NCBI GenBank assembly: GCA_050947035.1
Contig: JBMNVW010000003.1
Span: 25,992 to 89,991, forward strand
DNA length: 64,000 nt
Direction: 5' to 3'
DNA from: Patescibacteria group bacterium
Lineage (GTDB): Bacteria > Patescibacteriota > Microgenomatia > 0-14-0-10-38-17
Shown here: piece by piece, positions 760 to 44,555 of the stretch
Layout: each line of letters begins with the position of its first letter
Position numbering within the stretch: position 1 is the stretch's first letter
Program-made: the position numbers and the translations under genes
The notes under the pieces: generated by a model
What the model was told of the DNA's origin: nothing
Seen by the model: the letters and a program-made list of their open reading frames with translations, nothing else
Database searches by the model: none

Positions 760-1779
760 ATGAGCAAGTCTAAAGGAAAAAAAGGGAAAAAATCCTCTTC
801 TTCTCCCCGATTGGAGGCGGTAAAATTGGCGATGGAGCAAATACAGAAGCAATATGGTCAGGGTTCGATTATGAAAATGGGGAAAAATGATGTTGTCAAA
901 GATGTTCCGGCTATTCCTACTGGCTGTTTATCTTTGGACCGGGCTTTGGGAATAGGGGGGATTCCTAAAGGACGAGTTACCGAAATTTATGGTCCTGAAG
1001 CCTCAGGCAAAACCACGCTTTGTTTGCATATTATTGCCGAAGCCCAAAAGCAGGGTGGAGTGGCGGCTTTTGTTGATGTTGAGCATGCTCTCGACCCAGC
1101 CAGAGCCAAAGAAATTGGCGTTGACATAGACGAATTATTAATTTCTCAACCAGATACGGGCGAACAAGCCTTGGAAATTGTTGAAACACTGGTTCGTTCT
1201 GGGGGAATAGATGTGGTGGTTTTAGATTCAGTGGCCGCTTTGGTCCCTCGGGCCGAAATTGAGGGCGAAATGGGCGATGCCCAAGTTGGTGTTCAAGCTC
1301 GATTGATGAGCCAGGCTTTGAGAAAGTTAACGGGGGCAATTTCTAAATCTCACACGGCAGTAATTTTTACCAATCAAATTCGACACAAAATTGGGGTCAT
1401 GTTTGGCAATCCGGAAACTACTTCCGGAGGTTTGGCGTTAAAGTTTTATTCTTCGGTTAGGATTGATATTAGAAAAATCGGCACGATTAAGGAAAAAGAT
1501 GAAATAATCGGCTCTCATCATCGAGCTAGGATTAAAAAAAATAAGGTTGCTCCACCATTTAAAGAAGCAGAGTTTGACATTATGAATAAAGGGGGAATTT
1601 CTTTGGCCGGTGATATTTTAGATTTAGCGGTTGACTTAGATTTGATAGAAAAGTCGGGCGCTTTTTATAAGCAAGACGGTGAAGTTTTGGCTCAAGGGAG
1701 AGAAGCAACCAAAAAATATTTAGAAGATAATCCTAAAGTGGCCAAAAAAATTGTTTCGGCGATCAAGAAAGCTTCTTAA
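760..1779 (+). CDS. recA: recombinase RecA
   Basis: Full-length RecA with Walker [10 protein letters not shown] and the conserved L2 region; 339 aa. Confidence 0.97.
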
Positions 1780-1791
1780 AAAAAGATTAAA

Positions 1792-2412
1792 GTGCCCCAA
1801 GTTACTGCTATAAAAACTCAAAAAAAGGACCCTAGTCGGGTTAGCCTTTATCTTGATGGTAAATTTGCTTTTGGTTTAGGCCGGGACCTATCAACTAAAG
1901 CGGGTTTAGTAGTGGGAAAAAAATTGTCCGAGGAGACCATCGAGAACCTCAAGGGGCAATCTGAAGAAGAAAAGTTTCTTAATTTGACCTATCGCTATCT
2001 TTCTTATCGGCCCCGATCAGAAAAAGAGGTAGTTAATCATTTAACCAAGAAAAAAGTTAATAAAAAAACTATTGCCAAAATTATTAGTCGATTAAAAAAG
2101 CAAGATTATTTAGATGATGAAGAATTTGCCCTTTGGTGGATCGATCAACGTCAACGTTTTCGTCCCAGAAGCCGGTATTTTTTAAAAAGCGAATTAATAA
2201 AAAAGGGCGTTGAAAGAAAAATAATTGATCAAGCTTTGACAAAAGTAGATGAGGAGGCTCTGGTGGATAAGATAATTCTTAAAAGAAAGTCACGATTAAA
2301 GAATCTTGAGCCGTTTCAAGCCAGAAAAAAATTAATTGGCTATTTACAGCGACGAGGCTTTTCTTGGGAGATAATTAAAAAGGGCTTGGGAAAAGCCAAA
2401 ATTTTTGACTAA
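1792..2412 (+). CDS. recX: recombination regulator RecX
   Basis: GTG start 13 nt after the recA stop. Basic helical-repeat protein of RecX size in the canonical position after recA. Confidence 0.75.
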   Translation: MPQVTAIKTQKKDPSRVSLYLDGKFAFGLGRDLSTKAGLVVGKKLSEETIENLKGQSEEEKFLNLTYRYLSYRPRSEKEVVNHLTKKKVNKKTIAKIISRLKKQDYLDDEEFALWWIDQRQRFRPRSRYFLKSELIKKGVERKIIDQALTKVDEEALVDKIILKRKSRLKNLEPFQARKKLIGYLQRRGFSWEIIKKGLGKAKIFD

Positions 2413-2576
2413 AAAAGCCCAAGGGGTTACAATAAGGTTTAGCAAAAGCGTTTTATGAAAACAAGAAAGAAAGACAGCCATCCTCTTAGGTGATAAGCTT
2501 TTTCTTGATTTTTTTAACTCTTCTTGTTTTTCTTTGATGTTTTTTGCTTTCTTAAAATAGATTATTATTATCCTTT

Positions 2577-3752
2577 ATGACTAAAAAAGATCCAAAAAAA
2601 TTAACAGAAAAAGTTAACCAACTAGAAAAAGAGAACAAGGCCCTTAAAGAAAAGCTTCTTTTAGAATTAGACCAAGAGCTAAAAGCCAAGGTTGCTAAAA
2701 AAATCGCTAAGGCCGAAGAAGAGATTAAGTTAACTTCCGAGGAGAAAGCTAAGCAAATTTTGGTTGAGGCGATGAAACACGGGGCAACTGATATTACCGC
2801 TGAATATACCGCTTCTTCAGTTAAGCTTCCTTCAGAAGATATTAAAGGGAAAATTATTGGCCGAGAAGGGCGAAATATTCGTGTTTTTGAACGGGTAACC
2901 GGAGTAGATCTAGACCTAGACGAAGAGGGAGAAATTCGCCTTTCTTCTTTTGATTCTCAAAGAAGAGAAGTAGCCAAAAGAGCCTTAAAAAAGCTAATTC
3001 GTGATGGGCGAATTCAACCTAATCGAATTGAAGAAGTAGTTGATCAGGTTAAAAAAGAGGTCGATAAAATTATTTTGGAAGAAGGCAATAAGCTCTGCCA
3101 AGCGGTGGGGGTTTATGATTTACCCTTAGAGTTAGTGAAGATGATTGGTAAGTTTAAGTTTCGCTTTTCTTACGGCCAAAACCTCCTGGTTCATACTTTA
3201 GAAGAAACTAAAATCGGCATGGAAATTGCCCGTCAATTAAAGGCGGATGTTGAAGTTGTTCGTTTGGGCTGTTTGCTTCACGATATTGGCAAAATAGCCA
3301 GTGACCGCAAAGGTTCTCATGTTGATTTGGGAGTGGAGATTGCCAGAAAACACGATATGCCAAAAAAGGTAATTGCCGCCATTGCCGAGCACCATGAGGA
3401 TAAACCCTTTTCCTCAATTGAATCGGCAATTATTTGGATTGCTGATGCTATTTCCGGCTCTCGACCGGCGGCTCGTTACGAACCCCATGAAGACTATGTT
3501 GAGCGTATGAGCAAGATTGAAGAAGTGGCCAAGTCGTTTTCTGGAGTAGTTGACGTGGCCGCTTATCAAGCAGGAAGAGAGGTTCGAGTGGTGGTTGAGC
3601 CGGATGAAATATCAGATGATGAAGTAACAATTTTAGCTCATGAGATTGCGGAGAAGCTAGAAGAAATGGCTCGTTGGGCCGGTCGAATTAGGGTAACCGT
3701 AATTAGAGAAATTAGGGCCCAAGAAACTGCCCCCTTAACAGAAGAAGACTAA
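2577..3752 (+). CDS. rny: ribonuclease Y (KH + HD domains; short form without a long N-terminal region)
   Basis: KGKIIGREGRNIRVFERVTGVDL (KH GxxG) and LLHDIGK..GSHVDLGVEIARKH..HH (HD) align closely with B. subtilis Rny. The C-terminus AGREVRVVVEP..VTVIRE is conserved. Confidence 0.9.
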   Translation: MTKKDPKKLTEKVNQLEKENKALKEKLLLELDQELKAKVAKKIAKAEEEIKLTSEEKAKQILVEAMKHGATDITAEYTASSVKLPSEDIKGKIIGREGRNIRVFERVTGVDLDLDEEGEIRLSSFDSQRREVAKRALKKLIRDGRIQPNRIEEVVDQVKKEVDKIILEEGNKLCQAVGVYDLPLELVKMIGKFKFRFSYGQNLLVHTLEETKIGMEIARQLKADVEVVRLGCLLHDIGKIASDRKGSHVDLGVEIARKHDMPKKVIAAIAEHHEDKPFSSIESAIIWIADAISGSRPAARYEPHEDYVERMSKIEEVAKSFSGVVDVAAYQAGREVRVVVEPDEISDDEVTILAHEIAEKLEEMARWAGRIRVTVIREIRAQETAPLTEED

Positions 3753-3869
3753 TCTTGACAGCTCGGCCTTAATCGGCTATTCTGTTTCTTGCTTGCCAAA
3801 AAAAACGATAATAATAACCCTTAATTTTAAGTAATATTTTAAATCCATTAAAGGGAGGTGGAAAAGAGA

Positions 3870-4145
3870 ATGATTAAAAGTCAAATTGTTGAAGAAGTCG
3901 CCAAAAAAGCCGACACTACTAAGAAAAATGCTCGAGAAGTGGTTGATATTTTTTTGGATGAAATTCAAAAAGCTTTAGCTCGAGGAGAGTCTAAAGTGGT
4001 AATTTCCGGGTTTGGCACTTTCCGAACCACCATGGTTAAGGAAAAAACAGTCACTGTTCCGGGAACTAACGAGACTGTTAAGGTTAAGGCTCATCGAGCC
4101 GCCCGCTTCAGTCCCGGAAAAGCTTTAAAAAGAGCGGTCAAATAA
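3870..4145 (+). CDS. hup: DNA-binding protein HU
   Basis: MIKSQIVEEVAKKADTTKKNAREVVD...GFGTF..R.AR.GRNP HU fold. The ATG at 3870 with GGGAGGTG 9 nt upstream is preferred over the track GTG at 3858. Confidence 0.85.
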   Translation: MIKSQIVEEVAKKADTTKKNAREVVDIFLDEIQKALARGESKVVISGFGTFRTTMVKEKTVTVPGTNETVKVKAHRAARFSPGKALKRAVK

Positions 4146-4170
4146 GGCCGTTTTTTTAAAGAAATAAAAA

Positions 4171-4196
4171 GCGCTCATTTTTTAGAGCGCTTTTTT
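4171..4196. terminator. bidirectional rho-independent terminator between hup (+) and tatD (-)
   Basis: GCGCTC-attttta-GAGCGC perfect 6-bp stem flanked by an A-run upstream and a T-run downstream. Confidence 0.6.
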
Positions 4197-4217
4197 ATTT
4201 TTGATCACCTTGGGGTA

Positions 4218-5045
4218 TTACACTTTTAAGGTGGAAACTGGAAGGTGTAAGGGGGAGAAAATTTGTTTGGCGTTGGTGGTGGTTTGTTTGGCTATTGTTC
4301 TTAGGGGAAGATTTTTTATTTTAGCCGCAAATTCGGCAATATATTTTAAATTCCTGGGTTCATTGGGAAAGGGTTTTTCTTTTTTGATTGGCTCTGGTGT
4401 TAGATAAGGGCTATCGGTTTCTAAAACCAGCATTTCCAGGGGAACAGTTTTGATAAAGCGAGCCTTTTTGTTCCAATAGGTGATATCACCGTCGACACCA
4501 ATAAAAATTTGGTGTTTTTGGGCAAAAGTTAACAGTTCTTCATCGGGTTCGCAACAATGAAAAACAGCCCGGCCCTCAAAGCCTTTGTGCCAATGTTTTT
4601 TTATTATTGCCAGCATATCTTCTTTGGCCTCACGGTTATGAAAGATGATTGGTTTTTGATATTTTTGGGCGAGTTTTATTTGTTTGATAAATAGGGCCTG
4701 TTGGTTTTTTTTAAATTGGCCATTAATTTGATAATTTTCGTATTTTGTGTTTTGGTATTGGTGGTAGTCAAGGCCGATTTCGCCTACGGCGGTTGTTTTT
4801 GTTTTTTTTATTAAATCTTCTAATTTTTCGAGGTCAATTTTACTTTGAGCGTGGTGAGGATGAATGCCGATAGCAGCAAAAACATTTTTATATTTTTTGG
4901 CTAATTGAAGAGCTTTTTGGGAAGTGGTCATATTTGATCCAGGAACCAAGAAATAATTAATTCCGGCCTTGGAGGCTCGATTAATAATTTCTCTTTCTTG
5001 GTTTTTGAAAACAGCAAAATTAAGGTGGCAATGAGTGTCGAACAT
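4218..5045 (-). CDS. tatD: TatD-family metal-dependent DNase/hydrolase
   Basis: N-terminal MFDTHCHL, internal HxH and D motifs typical of TatD/YcfH; 275 aa. Confidence 0.88.
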   Translation of the reverse strand: MFDTHCHLNFAVFKNQEREIINRASKAGINYFLVPGSNMTTSQKALQLAKKYKNVFAAIGIHPHHAQSKIDLEKLEDLIKKTKTTAVGEIGLDYHQYQNTKYENYQINGQFKKNQQALFIKQIKLAQKYQKPIIFHNREAKEDMLAIIKKHWHKGFEGRAVFHCCEPDEELLTFAQKHQIFIGVDGDITYWNKKARFIKTVPLEMLVLETDSPYLTPEPIKKEKPFPNEPRNLKYIAEFAAKIKNLPLRTIAKQTTTNAKQIFSPLHLPVSTLKV

Positions 5046-5138: not shown

Positions 5139-6074
5139 ATGAAAAAGCCCAGTTGGGAAAAGCTGAAGAAGTATGATTGGTTTTTTTGTGCTATAGTTAT
5201 TGCCTTAGTAGTTTTGTTTTACAGCCTTCTCATTGGCTATGCGAAATATTCGTTTGAAAAAAAGCTTTCTGAGGCGACCGCTCTTCATCTAAATAGGATT
5301 GTTGCCCTAAGTCAGGTAGAACAAGAAAAACTTTTTAGTAAAGCGCATTTACTACTTGATTCTTTTGCTAAAGAAGATGAGGCGATTTTTTCTTCTCCCA
5401 AACAGTGTCAGGAGGTGGCCAAAAAGATTGTTCATTTTTCCCCGGATTTCTACACTTTGGGTGCTGCCTCGTTAGAGGGAAAAGTGATTTGTGATGCTCT
5501 TTCTTTTGAGGGCGAGATTGATGTTTCTGACCGGAGCTATATTCAGGAAGCAATAGAGAGCAAGGAATTTTCGATCGGCCAATATCAGATTGGTAAAGTT
5601 TCCCATAAGCCCTCCCTTAATTTTGGTTATCCGGTTTTGGATCAGCAAGGCCAGGTTAAGCGGGTTCTGGTTGCCTCTTTAAGCCTTGAGTGGCTGGACC
5701 CTTTTATTAAAGAATTAGATTTGCCAGTCGGCGCTGATGTTTTTGTTTTTGATCGTAAAGGGCGAATTTTATATCATTATTCTGATACAGGCCTAATTGG
5801 CGAATTTGGTTTAGAAACTTCTCTGTTTGCGGCTATTTTAGCTGAGCCCGACGGAACAGCCATGATTACTACCGATGACGGTATTGAAAAGATTTTTGCC
5901 TTTACTCCCATTAAGGGAGAGCAAATGTCTGACACTATCATTGCTCTTGGTGTTCCCAAAGAGGCAGTTTTTTCTAAGTATGGAGTATCTTGGCAGATGG
6001 TTTGGTTGGTTCATGTCGGTATTGCTCTATTTTTGCTAGGGGCCGTTTTTTACTCTCATTATCGTCACCAATAA
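5139..6074 (+). CDS. membrane protein with an extracytoplasmic sensor-like (Cache-like) domain between two TM helices; no output domain
   Basis: N-terminal TM (FFCAIVIALVVLFYSLLIGY), ~240-aa periplasmic region, C-terminal TM (MVWLVHVGIALFLLGAVFY). The domain call is by architecture only. Confidence 0.35.
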   Translation: MKKPSWEKLKKYDWFFCAIVIALVVLFYSLLIGYAKYSFEKKLSEATALHLNRIVALSQVEQEKLFSKAHLLLDSFAKEDEAIFSSPKQCQEVAKKIVHFSPDFYTLGAASLEGKVICDALSFEGEIDVSDRSYIQEAIESKEFSIGQYQIGKVSHKPSLNFGYPVLDQQGQVKRVLVASLSLEWLDPFIKELDLPVGADVFVFDRKGRILYHYSDTGLIGEFGLETSLFAAILAEPDGTAMITTDDGIEKIFAFTPIKGEQMSDTIIALGVPKEAVFSKYGVSWQMVWLVHVGIALFLLGAVFYSHYRHQ

Positions 6075-8998: not shown

Positions 8999-10405
8999 AT
9001 GAGTGGATTGTTTGGGGTTGTTGCTGAGAAAAATTGTCCCGAGATTTTATTTTATGGTACTGATTACCATTCCCACTTGGGAGCAAAGCGGGCCGGTTTG
9101 GCTGTTTTAAATAATAAAATTGAGAGAAGTATTCATAATATTAGCACCTCTCAGTTTAAATCAAAATTTATTGACGAGTTACCCCAGCTAAAAGGTGGCG
9201 CTGGTATTGGTGTTATCAGCGATTCTGAGCCTCAGCCGATTATTATTAGTTCTTCTTTCGGAACTTTTGGGCTAGTTTTTAATGGTCTTTTGGCTAACAA
9301 AGACAAGTTGGCTAAGGACCTGATGAGGAAAGGAAAAAGCTTTTCGGAAATGTCCAATGGTCAGATTAATTCTGTCGAGGTAGCCGGCAAAATGATTGCC
9401 AGTCAAAAAAATATCTTGGCCGGAATTAATCATTTTTTTGATAAGATGACCGGTTCCGCCTCGATGCTTGTTTTGGCTAGGGAGGGTGTTTATGCCATTC
9501 GTGATAAATTGGGAAGAACCCCTTTAGTGGTTGCTAAAAATGCCCGTCAGTTAGCGGTGGCCTCCGAGAATAGTGCTTTTGCCAATTTAGGTTTTGAGTC
9601 GATCAAAGAGCTGCTTCCTGGAGAAGTGGTCTTGTTGACAAAAAAAGGGGTAAAAACAAAGATAGCGGGAAAAGAGAATGAGAAAATTTGTGCCCTTTTA
9701 TGGATTTATAATGGTTTTCCGACCTCTTCTTATGATGGCCAGTCGGTTGAATTGGTTCGAGAGCGATCTGGTAAAAATTTAGCCAAAAATGATCAAGTAG
9801 AGGCAGATTTAGTTTCTGGTGTGCCCGACTCCGGTATTGCCCATGCTCTAGGGTACGCTAGGGCATCGGGTATTCCTTATCGGCGGCCGCTGGTAAAATA
9901 TACTCCTGGTTACGGTCGAAGTTATACTCCTTTGAGGCAAGCAACCAGAGACCAAATCGCTAAAATGAAGCTAATTGCCAACAAAGAGGTTATTAAGGGG
10001 AAACGGATTATTATTTGTGACGACTCGATTGTCAGAGGAACCCAGCTTAAGAATCAAGGGGTCAAGAAGTTGTGGCAGGCTGGGGCAAAAGAAATTCACG
10101 GCCGAATTGCTTGTCCGCCCCTAATGTTTCCTTGTCAATATTGCCTAGCAACTAGAACAAGAAAAGAATTAATAACAAGACGGGTTTTGGCGCAATTGGT
10201 TGGAAAAAAAGTTGGTGACGATCAGGCTAAAAAATATAGCGACGATAAGAGCAAAGAACACCAAAAGATGGTTTCCCTGATTGGCAAAGAATTAGGATTG
10301 ACCTCATTAAAGTACCAAACGGTTGATGATATGGTTGCTGCGATTGGCTTACCCAGGGAAAGGCTTTGTTTGGAGTGCTGGCTGGGAAGGGGGGGACAAA
10401 AATGA
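8999..10405 (+). CDS. amidophosphoribosyltransferase-like protein (PurF family) with Ser in place of the N-terminal catalytic Cys
   Basis: N-terminal MSGLFGV (PurF has MCGI(V/F)G), PRTase motif RIIICDDSIVRGTQ, C-terminal Cys cluster CPPLMFPCQYC. Confidence 0.6.
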   Translation: MSGLFGVVAEKNCPEILFYGTDYHSHLGAKRAGLAVLNNKIERSIHNISTSQFKSKFIDELPQLKGGAGIGVISDSEPQPIIISSSFGTFGLVFNGLLANKDKLAKDLMRKGKSFSEMSNGQINSVEVAGKMIASQKNILAGINHFFDKMTGSASMLVLAREGVYAIRDKLGRTPLVVAKNARQLAVASENSAFANLGFESIKELLPGEVVLLTKKGVKTKIAGKENEKICALLWIYNGFPTSSYDGQSVELVRERSGKNLAKNDQVEADLVSGVPDSGIAHALGYARASGIPYRRPLVKYTPGYGRSYTPLRQATRDQIAKMKLIANKEVIKGKRIIICDDSIVRGTQLKNQGVKKLWQAGAKEIHGRIACPPLMFPCQYCLATRTRKELITRRVLAQLVGKKVGDDQAKKYSDDKSKEHQKMVSLIGKELGLTSLKYQTVDDMVAAIGLPRERLCLECWLGRGGQK

Positions 10406-12411: not shown

Positions 12412-12747
12412 GGCCCTTGAAAGAAGGATGGATACTGTAAACCAATATGGTTTTATAGAGGAAAGTCCAGGCAACAGGAAGCACGGTGCCCCAATTAAGG
12501 TTTGGGGGACCCGCCCGTTTTTGGGTGGGGACAGTGAGAGCCACAGAGACGAGTTCTTGCCTTTTTTAAATAAAAGGCAGAGGTGAAACGATCGCTAAAA
12601 AACGATACGCCCGCCCTTGGCGGACGGGGCAATCCTCCCGGTTGCAATCCAGAGTGAAGATGACCGCTTTCGTCATAATCTTCAAGTTTGGAGCGTTAGA
12701 TAGATTTCCATCAAAAACAGAACCTGGCTTATTTTCTTTTAAGGGCC
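12412..12747 (+). ncRNA. rnpB: RNase P RNA (bacterial type A, compact)
   Basis: GAGGAAAGTCCAGGC (CR-I/P4), AGGCAGAGGTGAAACG (GNRA/P14 region), ACAGAACCTGGCTTA (CR-V/P4') and a P1 pairing GGCCCTTGAAAGAA/TTCTTTTAAGGGCC. TGcTATAAT -10 at 12397-12405. Confidence 0.85.
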
Positions 12748-29011: not shown

Positions 29012-29076
29012 TTATTCGGCAGTGGATGATTTTCATGTTTGAGTATAGCATTGGCAAGTGATAAAATTCAAACCAA

Positions 29077-30493
29077 GATGAAACCTGTTCGTGTTCGTTT
29101 TGCCCCCTCACCCACTGGTGTTCCTCATATTGGCAATACCAGAACGGCTCTTTTTGCCTGGCTACTAGCTCGTCAAACCGGCGGCCAATTTATTGTTAGA
29201 GTGGAGGACACTGACCAAAAAAGATACCAAGAAAAATCTTTAGAAAAAATTTTAGCGATTTTAGAATTTTTAGATCTTTTCTGGGATGAGGGGCCAAAGG
29301 TTGGCGGTCCCCACCAACCCTACTTTCAGTCTCAGCGTCTAAAGCGCTACCAAGAAGTGGCTCAAAAACTGGTTGATAAGGGGGTTGCTTATTATTGTTT
29401 CTGTTCTTCGGCTCGGTTAAAAAATCTTCGCCAAGAACAAAAAGCCACTGGTAAAATTCCCAAATATGATCGCCATTGTTTGTCCTTATCAAAGTCAGAA
29501 ATTGAAAAGAAGAAAAAAACTACCCCCTATGTTATTAGATTGAAGATGCCCGATAATCAGGATTTTACCTGGAAGGATTTAGTCCAGGGTGAAATTACCA
29601 TTAATTCTAAAGATTTAGATGATCAGGTCTTGCTAAAATCAGACGGTTTTCCCACCTATCACTTAGGTGTAGTTGTTGATGATCACGATATGGAAATTAC
29701 CCACATTATTAGGGGAGTAGAATGGATTTCCTCGACTCCCAAACACCTCTTGCTGTATCAAGCTTTGGGTTGGGAGGTGCCCCAGATTATGCACCTGCCG
29801 CTTATTTTGGGGCCAGATAAGAGCAAATTGTCCAAAAGGCATGGAGCTAAGTCAATTCTTGATTATCGGGATGAGGGTTATTTAAAAGAAGCTCTGATTA
29901 ATTTTATGGCTTATCTTGGCTGGTCTTATCAAGATAACTCCCAACTGCTTTCCCTAGAAGAATTAGTAGGGGTTTTTGATTATAAAAAGATCCAAAAACA
30001 AAATGCTGTTTTTGATATTAAAAAACTAGATTGGTTTAATGCTCAATATATTAGAATGAAGAGCGATAAAGAATTAACTAAATTATTAAAACCCTTTGCT
30101 CCCGAAGAGGCGGATAAAGAGTTATTGATTAAAATTGTCCCTCTAGTTAAGGATCGGATGACGAAATTATCAGAATTTAGAAATTTAGCCGGGTTCTTTT
30201 TTGAGACTCCAAAAGTAGAAGAGACCCTTTTAGTCGAGAATGTTAAGGGGGATTATAAGAATTATTTGGCTAAAGCCATTGAGGCTCTTCAACCTATTAA
30301 AGAATGGCAGGAAAAAGAAATAACCCCAAGGTTAATGGATTTGATTGAAGAAAATGATTGGCCAACGGGCGATTTTTTTATGAGTTTGCGGATTGCTATT
30401 GCTGGTTCTCGTTATACCCCGCCGATTAACGAGTCAATGGAAATTTTAGGTAAGGAGGAAGCCTTAAAGAGAATAAAAAAACTACTTGACTGA
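29077..30493 (+). CDS. gltX: glutamate--tRNA ligase
   Basis: RFAPSPTGVPHIGN (HIGH), KLSKR (KMSKS). The ATG at 29077 is preferred. Confidence 0.9.
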
Positions 30494-30543: not shown

Positions 30544-30615
30544 TGCCGGGTGGAGTAATGGTAGTCTCATCGCGCTCTGAACGCGAAGATCTAGGTTCGA
30601 GTCCTAGCCCGGCAA
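30544..30615 (+). tRNA. tRNA-Gln (anticodon CUG), CCA not encoded
   Basis: U1-A72 acceptor TGCCGGG/CCCGGCA, 3-bp D-stem, anticodon stem TCGCG/CGCGA with loop CUCUGAA, T-arm CTAGG-TTCGAGT-CCTAG. Confidence 0.8.
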
Positions 30616-30845
30616 CATTAGTTGCTGGGCTTAGACGAGAACCTAGTAAAGGCTCTGATTAACAAGACGAAAAAGCCGGTCGAGCTGTTGTTATATTAAT
30701 TAACAAGGCAAGAATACGGTCCTTGTCGTCTTCGAGTCCTAGCCGGGCAACATTAGTTGCTGGGTTTAGACGAGAACCTAGTAAAGGCTCTGATTAACAA
30801 GACGAAAAAGACAATCGTGTTGTTGTTATCTCAACCAAGCTATCA
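30597..30845 (+). repeat. ~134-nt tandem direct duplication (about 1.9 copies) beginning inside the tRNA-Gln T-loop
   Basis: TTCGAGTCCTAGCCCGGCAACATTAGTTGCTGGGCTTAGACGAGAACCTAGTAAAGGCTCTGATTAACAAGACGAAAAAG at 30597-30675 is repeated at 30731-30810 with 2 substitutions. The following ~30 nt are also similar. Confidence 0.75.
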
Positions 30846-30920
30846 CCTCAGGGTTTCCACCTTAAAGGTGTCAAAAGGGTTTTTTTTGAATAATAGAGGA
30901 CAAGGGGTTAAAATATAGCT

Positions 30921-31904
30921 ATGGTCAGAAAAGATATTCGTCAAGGACTTGGCCAAATCTCAAAAGAAACGGGGGCGCCAGTAAAGAAAATTTTGGACTT
31001 GTTGTTTATTTTAAAAGACGGCAAGGCGATTGAGAATAATCAACTGGTTTGCAAAATTGGCCTGTCTAGAAATGTTTTGAACCAGATAAAAGAAAGGTTG
31101 ACCTCAATCTTAGAGCCGGTATCAAAAAACACCCAGCTTAATGTTAATCAAACTAAACCAGTGCAAGCGCTTTTTGAGGCTAATTATAAACCCGAAGAGG
31201 TTCTTTGGGATGTTTTTGAGGGAGAGGCCTATAAGGGATTGGTCGCCTTTTTAAAAACTGTTGACAAGAAAAGACCATCGCCGGAAAGAAAATACGACCA
31301 ATTTGGGGCCACCATAGAAACAATTGCTCGTCGAGCCTGTTTACTTCAGTTTTTTGGTGATATTCAAAATAAAAGGCTCTTGTTTATTGGCGATGATGAT
31401 TTTGTTTCGGTTGCCGTTGCTAAAATGGGAGGGGCAGAAAATATAACCGTTGTCGATATCGACAAGCGAATTTTGGGCAGAATAAATTTTCTTTCAGATG
31501 AGAAGGGTTTAGGGATTAAGACCTTCCATTATGATGCTAGAAAAAAACTACCCGCCGACCTTGAGAAAAAATTTGACGTTGTTTTTACTGATCCTCCATA
31601 TACCCCGGAGGGTATTAGACTTTTTATTTCTCGAGCGATAGAGTCCTTGGACGGGGATAATAGGGCGGCCAGAATATACTTTTGCTATGGTAATAGCGAC
31701 AAAGCCAAAGAAAGATTTTTACCGATTTATGAAATTTTAATCAATTCGGGCCTGATGGCCAGATGGATATTTGATAAATTTAATCGATATCAAGGGGCAG
31801 AATCAATCGGCAGCGCCAGCTCTTTATTTATTGCCGAAACCACCCCTCAAACAAAATTATTAATTAAGGGAAATTATGACAAACTCATCTACACCAATAA
31901 TTAA
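30921..31904 (+). CDS. DUF43/BpsA-like aminopropyltransferase (branched-chain polyamine synthase family) with an N-terminal winged-helix-like domain
   Basis: GDDDF and DPPYT motifs, and translational coupling to a SAM decarboxylase gene. Assignment from motif memory, not a search. Confidence 0.5.
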   Translation: MVRKDIRQGLGQISKETGAPVKKILDLLFILKDGKAIENNQLVCKIGLSRNVLNQIKERLTSILEPVSKNTQLNVNQTKPVQALFEANYKPEEVLWDVFEGEAYKGLVAFLKTVDKKRPSPERKYDQFGATIETIARRACLLQFFGDIQNKRLLFIGDDDFVSVAVAKMGGAENITVVDIDKRILGRINFLSDEKGLGIKTFHYDARKKLPADLEKKFDVVFTDPPYTPEGIRLFISRAIESLDGDNRAARIYFCYGNSDKAKERFLPIYEILINSGLMARWIFDKFNRYQGAESIGSASSLFIAETTPQTKLLIKGNYDKLIYTNN

Positions 31905-32229
31905 TCAATACGTTGCCCTAGTCAAGCTTGATTCCGAAGTTGCTTTGTGGGATCAAGTCGAGAGGGTTGCTAAAGATTTAATTATTGGCCTTAATCTTAA
32001 TGTTGTTAAAAAAACAGGCTATTCGTTTCATCCTGAGGGAATTACTCTTGCCTATATTTTGTCTGAATCTCATCTTTTAATCCACACTTGGCCGGAATCA
32101 GGGCTAATTCATATTGACCTGGTCACTTGTAGTTATCGTAGTAAAGAAGAATTTAAAAAATCTTTGGAAAAAGCCTTTTCCGAATACAATGTGGTTTCAA
32201 TTAAGATAAAAGAGGTTGTCTTTGACTAG
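31876..32229 (+). CDS. speH: S-adenosylmethionine decarboxylase proenzyme (small pyruvoyl-dependent SpeH type)
   Basis: ILSESHLLIHTWPE self-cleavage (ES) motif, ~117 aa, HIDLVTC. Confidence 0.8.
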   Translation: MTNSSTPIINQYVALVKLDSEVALWDQVERVAKDLIIGLNLNVVKKTGYSFHPEGITLAYILSESHLLIHTWPESGLIHIDLVTCSYRSKEEFKKSLEKAFSEYNVVSIKIKEVVFD

Positions 32230-44350: not shown

Positions 44351-44373
44351 AAGTAGCCCCAACCAGATTCGAA
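44351..44373 (-). repeat. 23-bp direct repeat of the tRNA-Glu 3' end (T-loop + acceptor 3' strand + 3 nt), 110 nt downstream of the tRNA
   Basis: AAGTAGCCCCAACCAGATTCGAA is identical at 44351-44373 and 44481-44503. Confidence 0.8.
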
Positions 44374-44483
44374 GATGACACGGACCATTTTCTTGCCGTG
44401 AGGGTTGGTGTAATGACAGCGCGGTTGTTTTTCTTGTTTTGATTGTCAGAATTCTTGACCAGTTCGGATCCGATTGGGCCAAG

Positions 44484-44555
44484 TAGCCCCAACCAGATTC
44501 GAACTGGTATTACTAGGATGAGAACCTAGCGTCCTAACCATTAGACGATGGGGCC
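44484..44555 (-). tRNA. tRNA-Glu (anticodon CUC), CCA not encoded
   Basis: Reverse complement: GGCCCCA-TC-GTC-TAATGGTTAG-GAC-G-CTAGG-TTCTCAT-CCTAG-TAAT-ACCAG-TTCGAAT-CTGGT-TGGGGCT-A. G1-U72 wobble. Confidence 0.8.

Follow-up and report, generated by a model that had tools for sequence, protein, structure and literature searches.

Behind a glutamine tRNA gene in 64,000 nucleotides (nt) of a Patescibacteria group bacterium (assembly GCA_050947035.1, contig JBMNVW010000003.1, positions 25,992 to 89,991 of the forward strand; this whole stretch is called the window here) lie 1.6 tandem copies of a gene-less module of ~135 nt, and modules of the same kind stand behind tRNA-Glu in the window and behind tRNA-Met in related genomes. 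Each unit has the same order: the tRNA, a short loop, an arm (X') that reads as the reverse complement of the T-arm and acceptor 3' strand of the same tRNA, a spacer of ~85 nt and a direct copy of the tRNA 3' end that starts at T54, the first base of the T-loop. The comparisons below establish this architecture, the specific matching of each module to its tRNA, the T54 boundary, the existence of filled and empty sites, the order of intact proximal and decayed distal units, and concerted evolution of the copies. We tentatively read the modules as a family of miniature, non-autonomous, site-specific elements that insert in the T-loop of tRNA genes and accrete beside the tRNA.

The modules at tRNA-Gln and tRNA-Glu

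A repeat search of the tRNA-Gln region returned a single pair of direct repeats, 30596-30699 and 30731-30834, which are 104 nt long, 91% identical and spaced 135 nt from start to start. The first repeated base is T54 (30596; TTCGAGT), and the tRNA portion inside the repeat comprises 20 nt to A73, or 21 counting the next C. A sequence-only reading of this stretch had described a tandem duplication of about 134 nt that begins inside the T-loop and consists of 19 nt of tRNA and 115 nt of downstream sequence repeated at ~97% identity. The duplication is real and begins at T54, but its period is 135, its tRNA part is 20-21 nt, and the high identity covers only the first 80 nt (78/80, 97.5%); by pairwise alignment it drops to ~67% over the next 24 nt, and the final ~30-55 nt of the two units do not align. 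A 51-nt probe from copy 1 matched only these two places in the window (0/100 shuffles). Tandem Repeats Finder did not report the array in the window, as expected for fewer than two copies with a decayed second unit.

The tRNA 3' end and the arm behind it form a hairpin whose two arms (30591-30616 and 30621-30646) are 26 nt each and 81% complementary, with a 4-nt loop, ATTA. The earlier reading had noticed this hairpin but drawn it too short, for it extends into the T-stem 5' strand. The duplex of arm 1 with its cognate tRNA-Gln is worth -38.6 kcal/mol, against -12 to -22 with other tRNAs. In copy 2 a C of the fragment has changed to G, which makes the hairpin weaker, and spacer 2 lacks both the conserved right end and a third fragment; the middle of spacer 2 (GACAATCGTG) is nearer to the tRNA-Met spacers than to spacer 1. 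That no integrase or cargo is present, as the reading had stated, was borne out: no open reading frame (ORF) stays open across copies in any frame, no integrase lies in or beside any module, and a 53-amino acid ORF at 30757-30918 has no Pfam match.

The same arrangement is found in an independent assembly. The sister genome GCA_015657915.1 (contig NPIE01000344.1; loci L050 and L060), reached through homologues of BpsA (92% identical, with flanking genes 88-98% identical in DNA), has the same tRNA-Gln, two units and the same junction, GTCGTC-TTCGAG, so the repeat is not the assembly artefact that the reading had named as its refutation. Four substitutions that separate the window from the sister genome occur in both Gln copies of each genome (ATTA in the loop of the window and ATCA in that of the sister; GGGC/TT and GGGGC, at two positions; GGCTCTG and GGTTCTG), and hence the first 80 nt of both units have been homogenised within each genome. 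Exchange between the copies is thus ongoing, and gene conversion keeps these 80 nt alike. The whole Gln trailer is 92-94% identical between the two genomes and third codon positions are 76-97% identical; at this short distance change in the trailer is indistinguishable from neutral, and the comparison is uninformative on purifying selection.

Inspection of the trailers of the other tRNAs in the window, made as a control, revealed a second case that the earlier reading had missed. A complete module follows tRNA-Glu on the minus strand (44351-44503), and its arm pairs with the cognate tRNA at -34.8 kcal/mol as against -9 to -24 with others. Most of the Gln spacer can be aligned with the Glu spacer without a gap; the two end in GGCAAGAATACGGTCCTTGTCGTC and GGCAAGAAAATGGTCCGTGTCATC, respectively. 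The trailer of tRNA-Pro in the window has no such module, which gives an occupancy of 2/3 tRNAs here; in the sister genome it is 3/5 of the tRNAs seen, with Gln, Glu and Met1 occupied and Met2 and Ile-UAU not.

Coordinates of the two modules and the parts assigned to them in the window
Feature	Position	Strand	Support or remark
tRNA-Gln(CUG), intact, no encoded CCA	30544-30615	+	ARAGORN; Rfam RF00005, 62 bits
X1, tRNA-Gln 3' part from T54 (T-loop, T-stem 3' strand, acceptor 3' strand, A73, C)	30596-30616	+	
Gln loop 1, ATTA	30617-30620	+	
Arm 1, imperfect reverse complement of tRNA-Gln ~49-74	30621-30646	+	81% complementary
Spacer 1, 84 nt	30647-30730	+	homologous to Glu and Met spacers; ends in GGTCCTTGTCGTC
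X2, displaced tRNA-Gln 3' end from T54, start of unit 2	30731-30751	+	20/21 identical to X1
Arm 2	30756-30781	+	25/26 identical to arm 1
Spacer 2, 5' portion only	30782-30840	+	profile positions 1-82 of 119 (nhmmer)
Sequence R (TATCACCTCAGGGTTTCCACCTTAAAGGTGTC...T8), small hairpin and T-run closing the region	30841-30887	+	
tRNA-Glu(CUC)	44483-44555	-	ARAGORN, Rfam
tRNA-Glu 3' part from T54 with CTT	44481-44503	-	first copy of 23-nt direct repeat
Glu arm, 22 nt, reverse complement of tRNA-Glu T-arm and acceptor 3' strand	44459-44480	-	
Glu spacer, 85 nt	44374-44458	-	ends in GGTCCGTGTCATC
Displaced tRNA-Glu 3' end from T54	44351-44373	-	23/23

The tRNA-Gln gene, whose 3' limit may also be set at 30616, begins 50 nt after the end of gltX (29039-30493) and is followed at a distance of ~300 nt by bpsA and an S-adenosylmethionine decarboxylase gene (speH; 30921-32229, from Pfam). 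A promoter-like site, TTGAAT-17-TAAAAT (30886-30914), ends ~7 nt upstream of the bpsA ATG; its position suggests that the bpsA mRNA is leaderless or nearly so, and a third tRNA fragment, now decayed, may underlie its -35 region (TTGAATAATAGAGG compared with TTCGAGTCCTAGCC). A riboswitch or leader of bpsA-speH was considered for the module and rejected, given that the gene has its own promoter-like site and that the module also stands behind tRNA-Glu and tRNA-Met with unrelated downstream genes. Sequence R, which closes the region, was not called as a terminator by a terminator scan. In the sister genome two direct copies of R (~35-47 nt, TATCACCTCGGrGyTTCCACCTTAAAGGTGTTAA; L050 ~4969-5010 and ~5920-5965) flank a mechanosensitive-channel gene (L050 5094-5774, minus strand, PF05552), and L051-54 also have a channel gene beside bpsA. 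The single R copy of the window, with the channel gene absent, suggests a deletion between R repeats. On the other side of tRNA-Gln, the sister genome carries an ORF of 300 amino acids with a LAGLIDADG domain (PF14528, E=4e-7; L050 3794-4696) between the gltX-side promoter region and the tRNA, whose start it overlaps by 15 nt; the ORF is also present in L060 and, truncated at its 5' end, in L059 (552-995). The window has only the 50-nt promoter region at this place. This ORF may drive allele replacement of the cassette formed by tRNA-Gln and its module.

Filled, empty and stacked sites among relatives

The relatives compared are Shapirobacteria-like genomes of the candidate phyla radiation (CPR), with metagenome contigs and syntenic loci labelled by L-numbers. 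A degenerate pattern of the spacer right end, AAGAANANGGTCCNTGTCNTCTTCRA, found three true junctions in metagenome contigs (at tRNA-Met in L058, at tRNA-Gln in L059 and in the sister locus L060) and one chance hit. With a profile of the spacer, the module was recovered in every syntenic tRNA-Glu locus fetched, namely L061, L062-64 and L065-67, where GreA is 98%, 87% and 74% identical, respectively, and at the tRNA-Met loci L069 and L070-72. The module is thus known at three tRNAs: Gln (window, L050 and L059), Glu (window and the seven loci just listed) and Met (L058, L069 and L070-72). A phage or plasmid origin was considered and rejected: five scans of viral contigs with exact or degenerate patterns gave no true match, those in L068, L074 and L075 being chance matches inside coding regions, and blastn against phages and plasmids gave nothing.

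Across these copies the loop between tRNA and arm measures 4-6 nt in most cases (~74 nt in L069/70) and the arm 16-26 nt. Duplexes of arm and cognate tRNA range from -27 to -39 kcal/mol, with -19.4 for the short arm of L065, and when each arm was compared with four other tRNAs the cognate tRNA was the best partner in 11/11. The fragment begins at T54 in every intact case at Gln, Glu and Met. The spacer is conserved as primary sequence, with the blocks CGyGsTGTTATTACACCAA, CAAGAAA and GTGTCrTC, and ends in GTGTCRTC directly upstream of the fragment; its right half retains 67-87% identity even when modules of different tRNAs are compared, as against 44-65% for the left half. No conserved fold was found in the spacer (RNAalifold -3.5 kcal/mol for 7 sequences and -0.65 for 10, the latter with a covariation term of 0), and conservation as sequence rather than as an RNA fold would fit protein-binding sites. 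The pairing of arm and tRNA co-varies between tRNA types, a pattern that templated copying would also give. The length of the direct repeat varies, from 23 nt at Glu to 33 or more at Met (L058) and 80-104 at Gln, and a simple target-site duplication from T54 to the insertion point fits Glu but fails for Gln and for Met in L058 and L069.

Related loci also show sites with no module. In L073 two tRNA-Met genes lie 64 nt apart with no arm, spacer or fragment, at the site that is filled in L058, L069 and L070-72, and tRNA-Gln has no module in L002 and L056. Where units are stacked, intact ones adjoin the tRNA and decayed ones are distal. This is seen at Gln, where unit 2 is truncated and has an older type of spacer, and at Glu in L062-64, where a remnant of an L065-type arm and spacer start lies distal to the current module; in L058 a second, diverged arm follows the tRNA-Met fragment. 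Serial accretion next to the tRNA is supported by this order. In L059 the fragment differs from its own tRNA-Gln at 3/21 positions, and its acceptor strand matches the tRNA-Gln allele of L002 and L052, as expected of a displaced resident end. L052 has no intact tRNA here; ahead of its channel gene and bpsA it keeps a degenerate remnant of a module (CTAGGTTGAGAACCTAG, 27 nt and AAATCCTAGCTGGGCAAC; 2560-2660), and a tRNA-Gln 3' fragment stands there beside a non-syntenic gene block. The same module is present at tRNA-Gln in L050 and L059; no larger or autonomous element with the spacer was found. Spacers cluster by tRNA type and not by genome, with orthologues 79-96% identical (68-73% for the Glu spacer of L065) and paralogues 57-75%, from which it follows that the three subfamilies are old and mostly inherited with their tRNA.

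Several further features of these loci were seen. At tRNA-Gln, the assemblies L051, L052 and L053 come from different samples and share a break ~3.75 kb upstream of bpsA; L001 and L002 end soon after gltX and tRNA-Gln. Together these breaks hint at repeated or variable DNA there. Between tRNA-Gln and bpsA (70% identical BpsA), L056 carries at 796-5010 a DUF4238 gene, a large serine recombinase and an IS3-type transposase; an att-bounded island was considered for this segment and rejected, since no tRNA direct repeat is present. At tRNA-Glu in L065 (~9300-9625, minus), the arm is short (GCCCCG TAGA CTCGC) and ~75 extra nt separate it from the spacer, and the displaced fragment has a stem-closed insertion of ~75 nt (CCCACC...GGTGGG) in its T-loop, between TTCG and ATT. 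The anticodon arm of the same tRNA differs wholesale, being UUC in L065 (9626-9698; ..ACACCACTCTTTCAAGGTGGTAAC..) as against CUC in L066 (9626-9698) and L067 (2532-2604; ..ACGCTAGGTTCTCATCCTAGTAAT..), in otherwise near-identical loci from different samples in which the rest of tRNA-Glu and the module are the same. At tRNA-Met, an ORF of 109-122 amino acids from the 23S rRNA intervening-sequence protein family (PF05635, E=1e-26; L069 9103-9432, L070/L071 8948-9316, L072 344-673) sits between the module and the second tRNA-Met and is absent from L073 and L058; repeats of the TAGTCTTTAGTCGTTAGTC type stand on either side of it in inverted arrays and recur between tRNA-Met1 and the arm. A motif, GGkTATTrAAGAAAAAy, found just after a tRNA end or displaced fragment (L002 8750-8775, L052 2640-2665, L061 ~9480-9500, minus), may be a common trailer or terminator signal in the clade. 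Elsewhere in these loci, the anaerobic ribonucleotide reductase NrdD has 1094 amino acids with intein and LAGLIDADG matches in the sister genome (L069 15674-18958) and 686 in a related Shapirobacteria genome (L070 15838-17898).

As a control we scanned all 26 tRNAs in the available loci for a downstream copy of their last 18 nt. The scan also caught a Sphaerochaeta-like tRNA-Arg(UCU) with one to three copies of its 3' end 136-146 nt downstream (L005 12556-12950, L007 12589-13000, L011 10354-10700, L020 12450-12828), where the tRNA is followed by a terminator, a GC-rich spacer of ~100 nt and copies of the tRNA 3' end that start within the T-loop (GCGAGCCCAAGTCGCCGT), with no cargo visible. In L041 (4850-5053, minus) an exact second copy of the last 53 nt of tRNA-Gln, from the 3' side of the D-arm, lies 22 nt downstream of the gene. 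Among metagenome-assembled genomes (MAGs), tRNA ends duplicated over a short length and with no cargo are therefore not rare. These cases have no tRNA-complementary arm and nothing in common with the module spacer.

A mobile element or a tRNA-linked RNA

If the modules are mobile, each would be an "attP-only" unit whose crossover with the tRNA gene falls between G53 and T54, at the 5' border of the T-loop. The incoming element would bring a replacement tRNA 3' end (X) and a short loop, the arm X' complementary to X and to the T-stem 5' strand, and the ~85-nt spacer, whose conserved right end (..CAAGAAA..GTGTCRTC) would abut the crossover; the resident tRNA 3' end would be displaced downstream and persist as the fragment. 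A crossover at the 5' edge of X in a folded site would give tRNA(1-53)-X-loop-X'-rest-X(resident), exactly the order seen. Each subfamily would be matched to one tRNA (Gln, Glu or Met), and new copies would enter beside the tRNA and push older ones to a distal position where they decay, which would yield the two Gln units. We infer that insertion is brought about by a recombinase acting in trans and that the X:X' hairpin, folded as a single strand, may be the site on which it acts, much as CTX-phi attP(+) and integron attC are used. The module's two inverted copies of its target do fold into a hairpin that mimics it, as at the CTX-phi site, and the preference of all arms for their cognate tRNA fits such mimicry of the target duplex. 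The regenerated tRNA, the T-loop fragment, the motif that abuts it, accretion, and filled and empty sites are features of site-specific tDNA insertion. Of the properties by which Islander defines an island, the modules have the tRNA with a cognate fragment in the same orientation, a boundary in the T-loop/T-stem and presence or absence among relatives, and have no internal integrase; as in a cis-mobilizable element (CIME), the DNA between the attL/attR-type repeats has no recombinase gene. The integrase footprint proposed by the sequence-only reading is partly supported, by the T-loop geometry, serial accretion and empty sites; the integrase itself was not found.

Several observations weigh against a mobile element. 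A tblastn search with the Xer-like protein of the clade found no homologue in the window, and apart from a conserved Xer-like gene near the tRNA-Met locus no tyrosine recombinase was seen; that gene has thousands of homologues and appears to be of housekeeping type. No autonomous relative or circular form appeared in five scans of viral contigs, two of metagenomes and a blastn search of phages and plasmids, in a clade that is poorly sampled. The clustering of spacers by tRNA type means that the copies are old and gives no sign of recent transposition, and retention of the tRNA-Glu module in every lineage examined would, in a streamlined genome, also fit a host function. A double-stranded circle of 135 bp would be too small for a comfortable substrate, such that a single-stranded or replicative route must be assumed. 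The variable right edge of the direct repeat means that a single clean crossover does not suffice unless there were earlier insertions or gene conversion, and the tRNA-Glu T-stem differs on both strands between L062 and L065, so that at least that replacement crossed upstream of T54.

The main rival, offered by the earlier reading as a tRNA-linked small RNA, is a cis-acting RNA module co-transcribed with the tRNA, which we judge somewhat less probable. Here the arm would pair with the tRNA 3' half or with the downstream fragment, in the latter case as a panhandle of ~20 bp that closes the spacer. Such a structure could set 3' processing, by cleavage of the RNase III, RNase P or RNase Z type a few nt after the tRNA, or control folding and maturation, or yield a stable small RNA of ~130 nt whose single-stranded spacer binds a protein; the Gln tandem would then have arisen by unequal crossing-over between the tRNA end and the fragment, with the second unit decaying. 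The module does lie inside tRNA transcription units, at Met between the two tRNAs that are close together when the site is empty and at Gln between the tRNA promoter region and the next promoter-like site. The Glu module has been retained down to the most distant GreA, with arm and fragment that track each lineage's T-stem variant, and the conservation of the right half of the spacer between ancient paralogues, higher than that of the left, argues for purifying selection. The large insertions stand at junctions and loops, namely after the tRNA in L069/70 and after the arm and in the T-loop of the fragment in L065, places that structured RNAs tolerate. In 9/10 cases an isolated trailer folds as an arm:fragment panhandle, but the z-scores lie in the modest range of -0.6 to -3.9, and the repeats by themselves trivially produce such a fold. 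On the tRNA-sense strand several arm changes preserve pairing as G:U, yet the tally of 5 against 3 that suit the other strand is not significant and does not decide which strand is functional. The spacer also has no conserved secondary structure or covariation and belongs to no Rfam family: searches with Rfam 15, at both gathering and permissive thresholds, covered the window, the modules at Gln, Glu and Met and five related loci and gave only tRNA and RNase P, whose RNA in the window lies at 12416-12747, the best other matches having E>1 and scores far below gathering. An RNA role requires neither a stem made from the tRNA's own sequence nor a copy that starts exactly at T54, and would have to accommodate the half of the tRNAs seen that have no module (Pro, Met2 and Ile-UAU), close relatives that lack it at tRNA-Met and tRNA-Gln, and repeated accretion with decay of older units, which is unexpected for a purely functional element.

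The reading had taken the duplication for a passive scar of integration and excision. On that account, full-size integrase islands or prophages at the T-loop were internally deleted until attL and attR fused, with two rounds at tRNA-Gln, and we regard it as improbable. The tRNA with a displaced fragment and the T-loop boundary are those of integrase islands (PMC4383910), the neighbourhood of tRNA-Gln is a hot spot, as the recombinase and transposase genes of L056 and the fragment beside the non-syntenic block of L052 illustrate, and the Sphaerochaeta-like tRNA-Arg (up to three copies) and L041 provide cargo-less tRNA 3'-end duplications in unrelated genomes. However, independent deletions would not leave the same 84-85-nt spacer and the same ends at three tRNAs in several lineages, nor would they leave each tRNA with its own matching arm; conservation above that of the flanks over such a distance is not expected of a neutral scar, there is no integrase remnant or ORF, and the L056 genes are not enclosed by a tRNA repeat. 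Very improbable indeed is a neutral local tandem duplication by slippage or unequal crossing-over, or an assembly artefact, since the head-to-tail arrangement with its 135-nt period and the TT/TTC microhomology at both junctions are offset by the same junction in an independent assembly, by identity that is uneven along the unit and by a single-unit form at other tRNAs with tRNA-specific arms, which slippage cannot explain.

Among these accounts we return to the mobile element, and in its most specific form we put it forward with somewhat more reserve than the general reading: an undescribed class of gene-less cassette of ~135 nt, made up of a hairpin copy of the target and a conserved protein-binding spacer, which would insert between G53 and T54 of specific tRNA genes through a folded single strand and build proximal-to-distal arrays, by a mechanism like that of integrons or CTX-phi with tRNA genes as docking sites. 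Just as novel would be an RNA dedicated to the tRNA trailer and pairing with the 3' half of its own tRNA.

Relation to known systems and implications

Full-text searches of the literature returned no description of such a module, which appears to be undescribed. Its closest known counterparts are the tandem ssrA islands of Dehalococcoides, which insert at the T-loop, carry a conserved 15-bp motif before each direct repeat and in 15 cases have no integration module (PMC3146451). Insertion in this part of a tRNA gene is common, with 1836/3919 Islander islands having an attP in the T-stem region (PMC4383910), and the attB of mycobacteriophage Ms6 lies in a tRNA T-loop (PMC1762012). The module shares with tDNA islands (PMC4383910, PMC3146451, PMC1762012) the regenerated tRNA, the fragment in direct orientation with its T-loop boundary, a motif upstream of the fragment, arrays downstream of the target, and filled and empty sites among relatives. 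Unlike those islands, which span kilobases and have an integrase, it measures ~135 nt with no gene and no integrase found nearby, has an arm complementary to its target and uses one spacer for three tRNA targets. What is new is this reduction to a conserved unit together with the target-complementary arm.

CIMEs, as discussed in PMC3146451, are flanked by attL and attR, devoid of an integrase, moved in trans and subject to accretion, and the module resembles them in having no recombinase of its own, target-derived direct repeats as bounds and tandem accretion at the target. CIMEs are decayed kilobase integrative and conjugative or integrative and mobilizable elements whose autonomous relatives use the same att site, whereas the module is a minimal unit conserved in length and sequence for which no such relative was found. 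A further likeness is to the single-stranded hairpin sites CTX-phi attP(+), used by XerCD (PMC3442271), and integron attC, used by IntI (PMC4792948): one strand of an imperfect inverted repeat folds to imitate the double-stranded target, and after insertion the inverted copy adjoins the regenerated target; in integrons, entry always at the proximal site pushes older cassettes distal, an order that the module arrays share. The module differs from both sites in its target, a tRNA T-arm rather than dif or attI, and in having no R''/R' boxes (RYYYAAC/GTTRRRY), IntI gene or phage genome; for the module, single-stranded recombination is putative. An attC site proper was rejected, as there is no GTTRRRY box, the hairpin on inspection has GTT on the 5' strand and AAC on the 3' strand, the reverse order, and no integrase gene is present, and a classic CTX-phi-type element was rejected because of the target and of a 135-nt unit with no replicon genes. 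Like bacterial miniature inverted-repeat transposable elements (MITEs) and small intergenic repeats, the module is small, non-coding and dependent on functions in trans, and its arm and fragment form inverted repeats that bracket the spacer. Its "terminal repeats" are, however, copies of the host tRNA that differ from site to site, with a direct repeat of 21-104 nt and no short fixed target-site duplication, and its copies are confined to tRNA 3' ends and share 57-75% identity from one tRNA type to another instead of being dispersed and near-identical, so we also rejected a MITE.

tRNA genes are classic docking sites of mobile DNA, and the units known there are kilobase islands with their own integrase; the module is tiny by comparison and gene-less, and bacteria whose genomes are very small have retained it for a long evolutionary time. 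Beside tRNA genes in MAGs, the modules create pseudo-tRNA fragments, repeats and contig breaks, and island-finding software would misread them as degraded islands. If they are mobile, they represent a minimal substrate for T-loop recombination and point to a trans-acting recombinase in the CPR, possibly one that acts on folded single strands. If instead they are an RNA device, they would be a novel means by which organisms with a reduced RNase complement manage the 3' ends or the folding of their tRNAs. Under the element and the RNA reading alike, the module, carried by half of the eight tRNA genes seen in the window and the sister genome, would be a common feature of tRNA loci in a CPR lineage.

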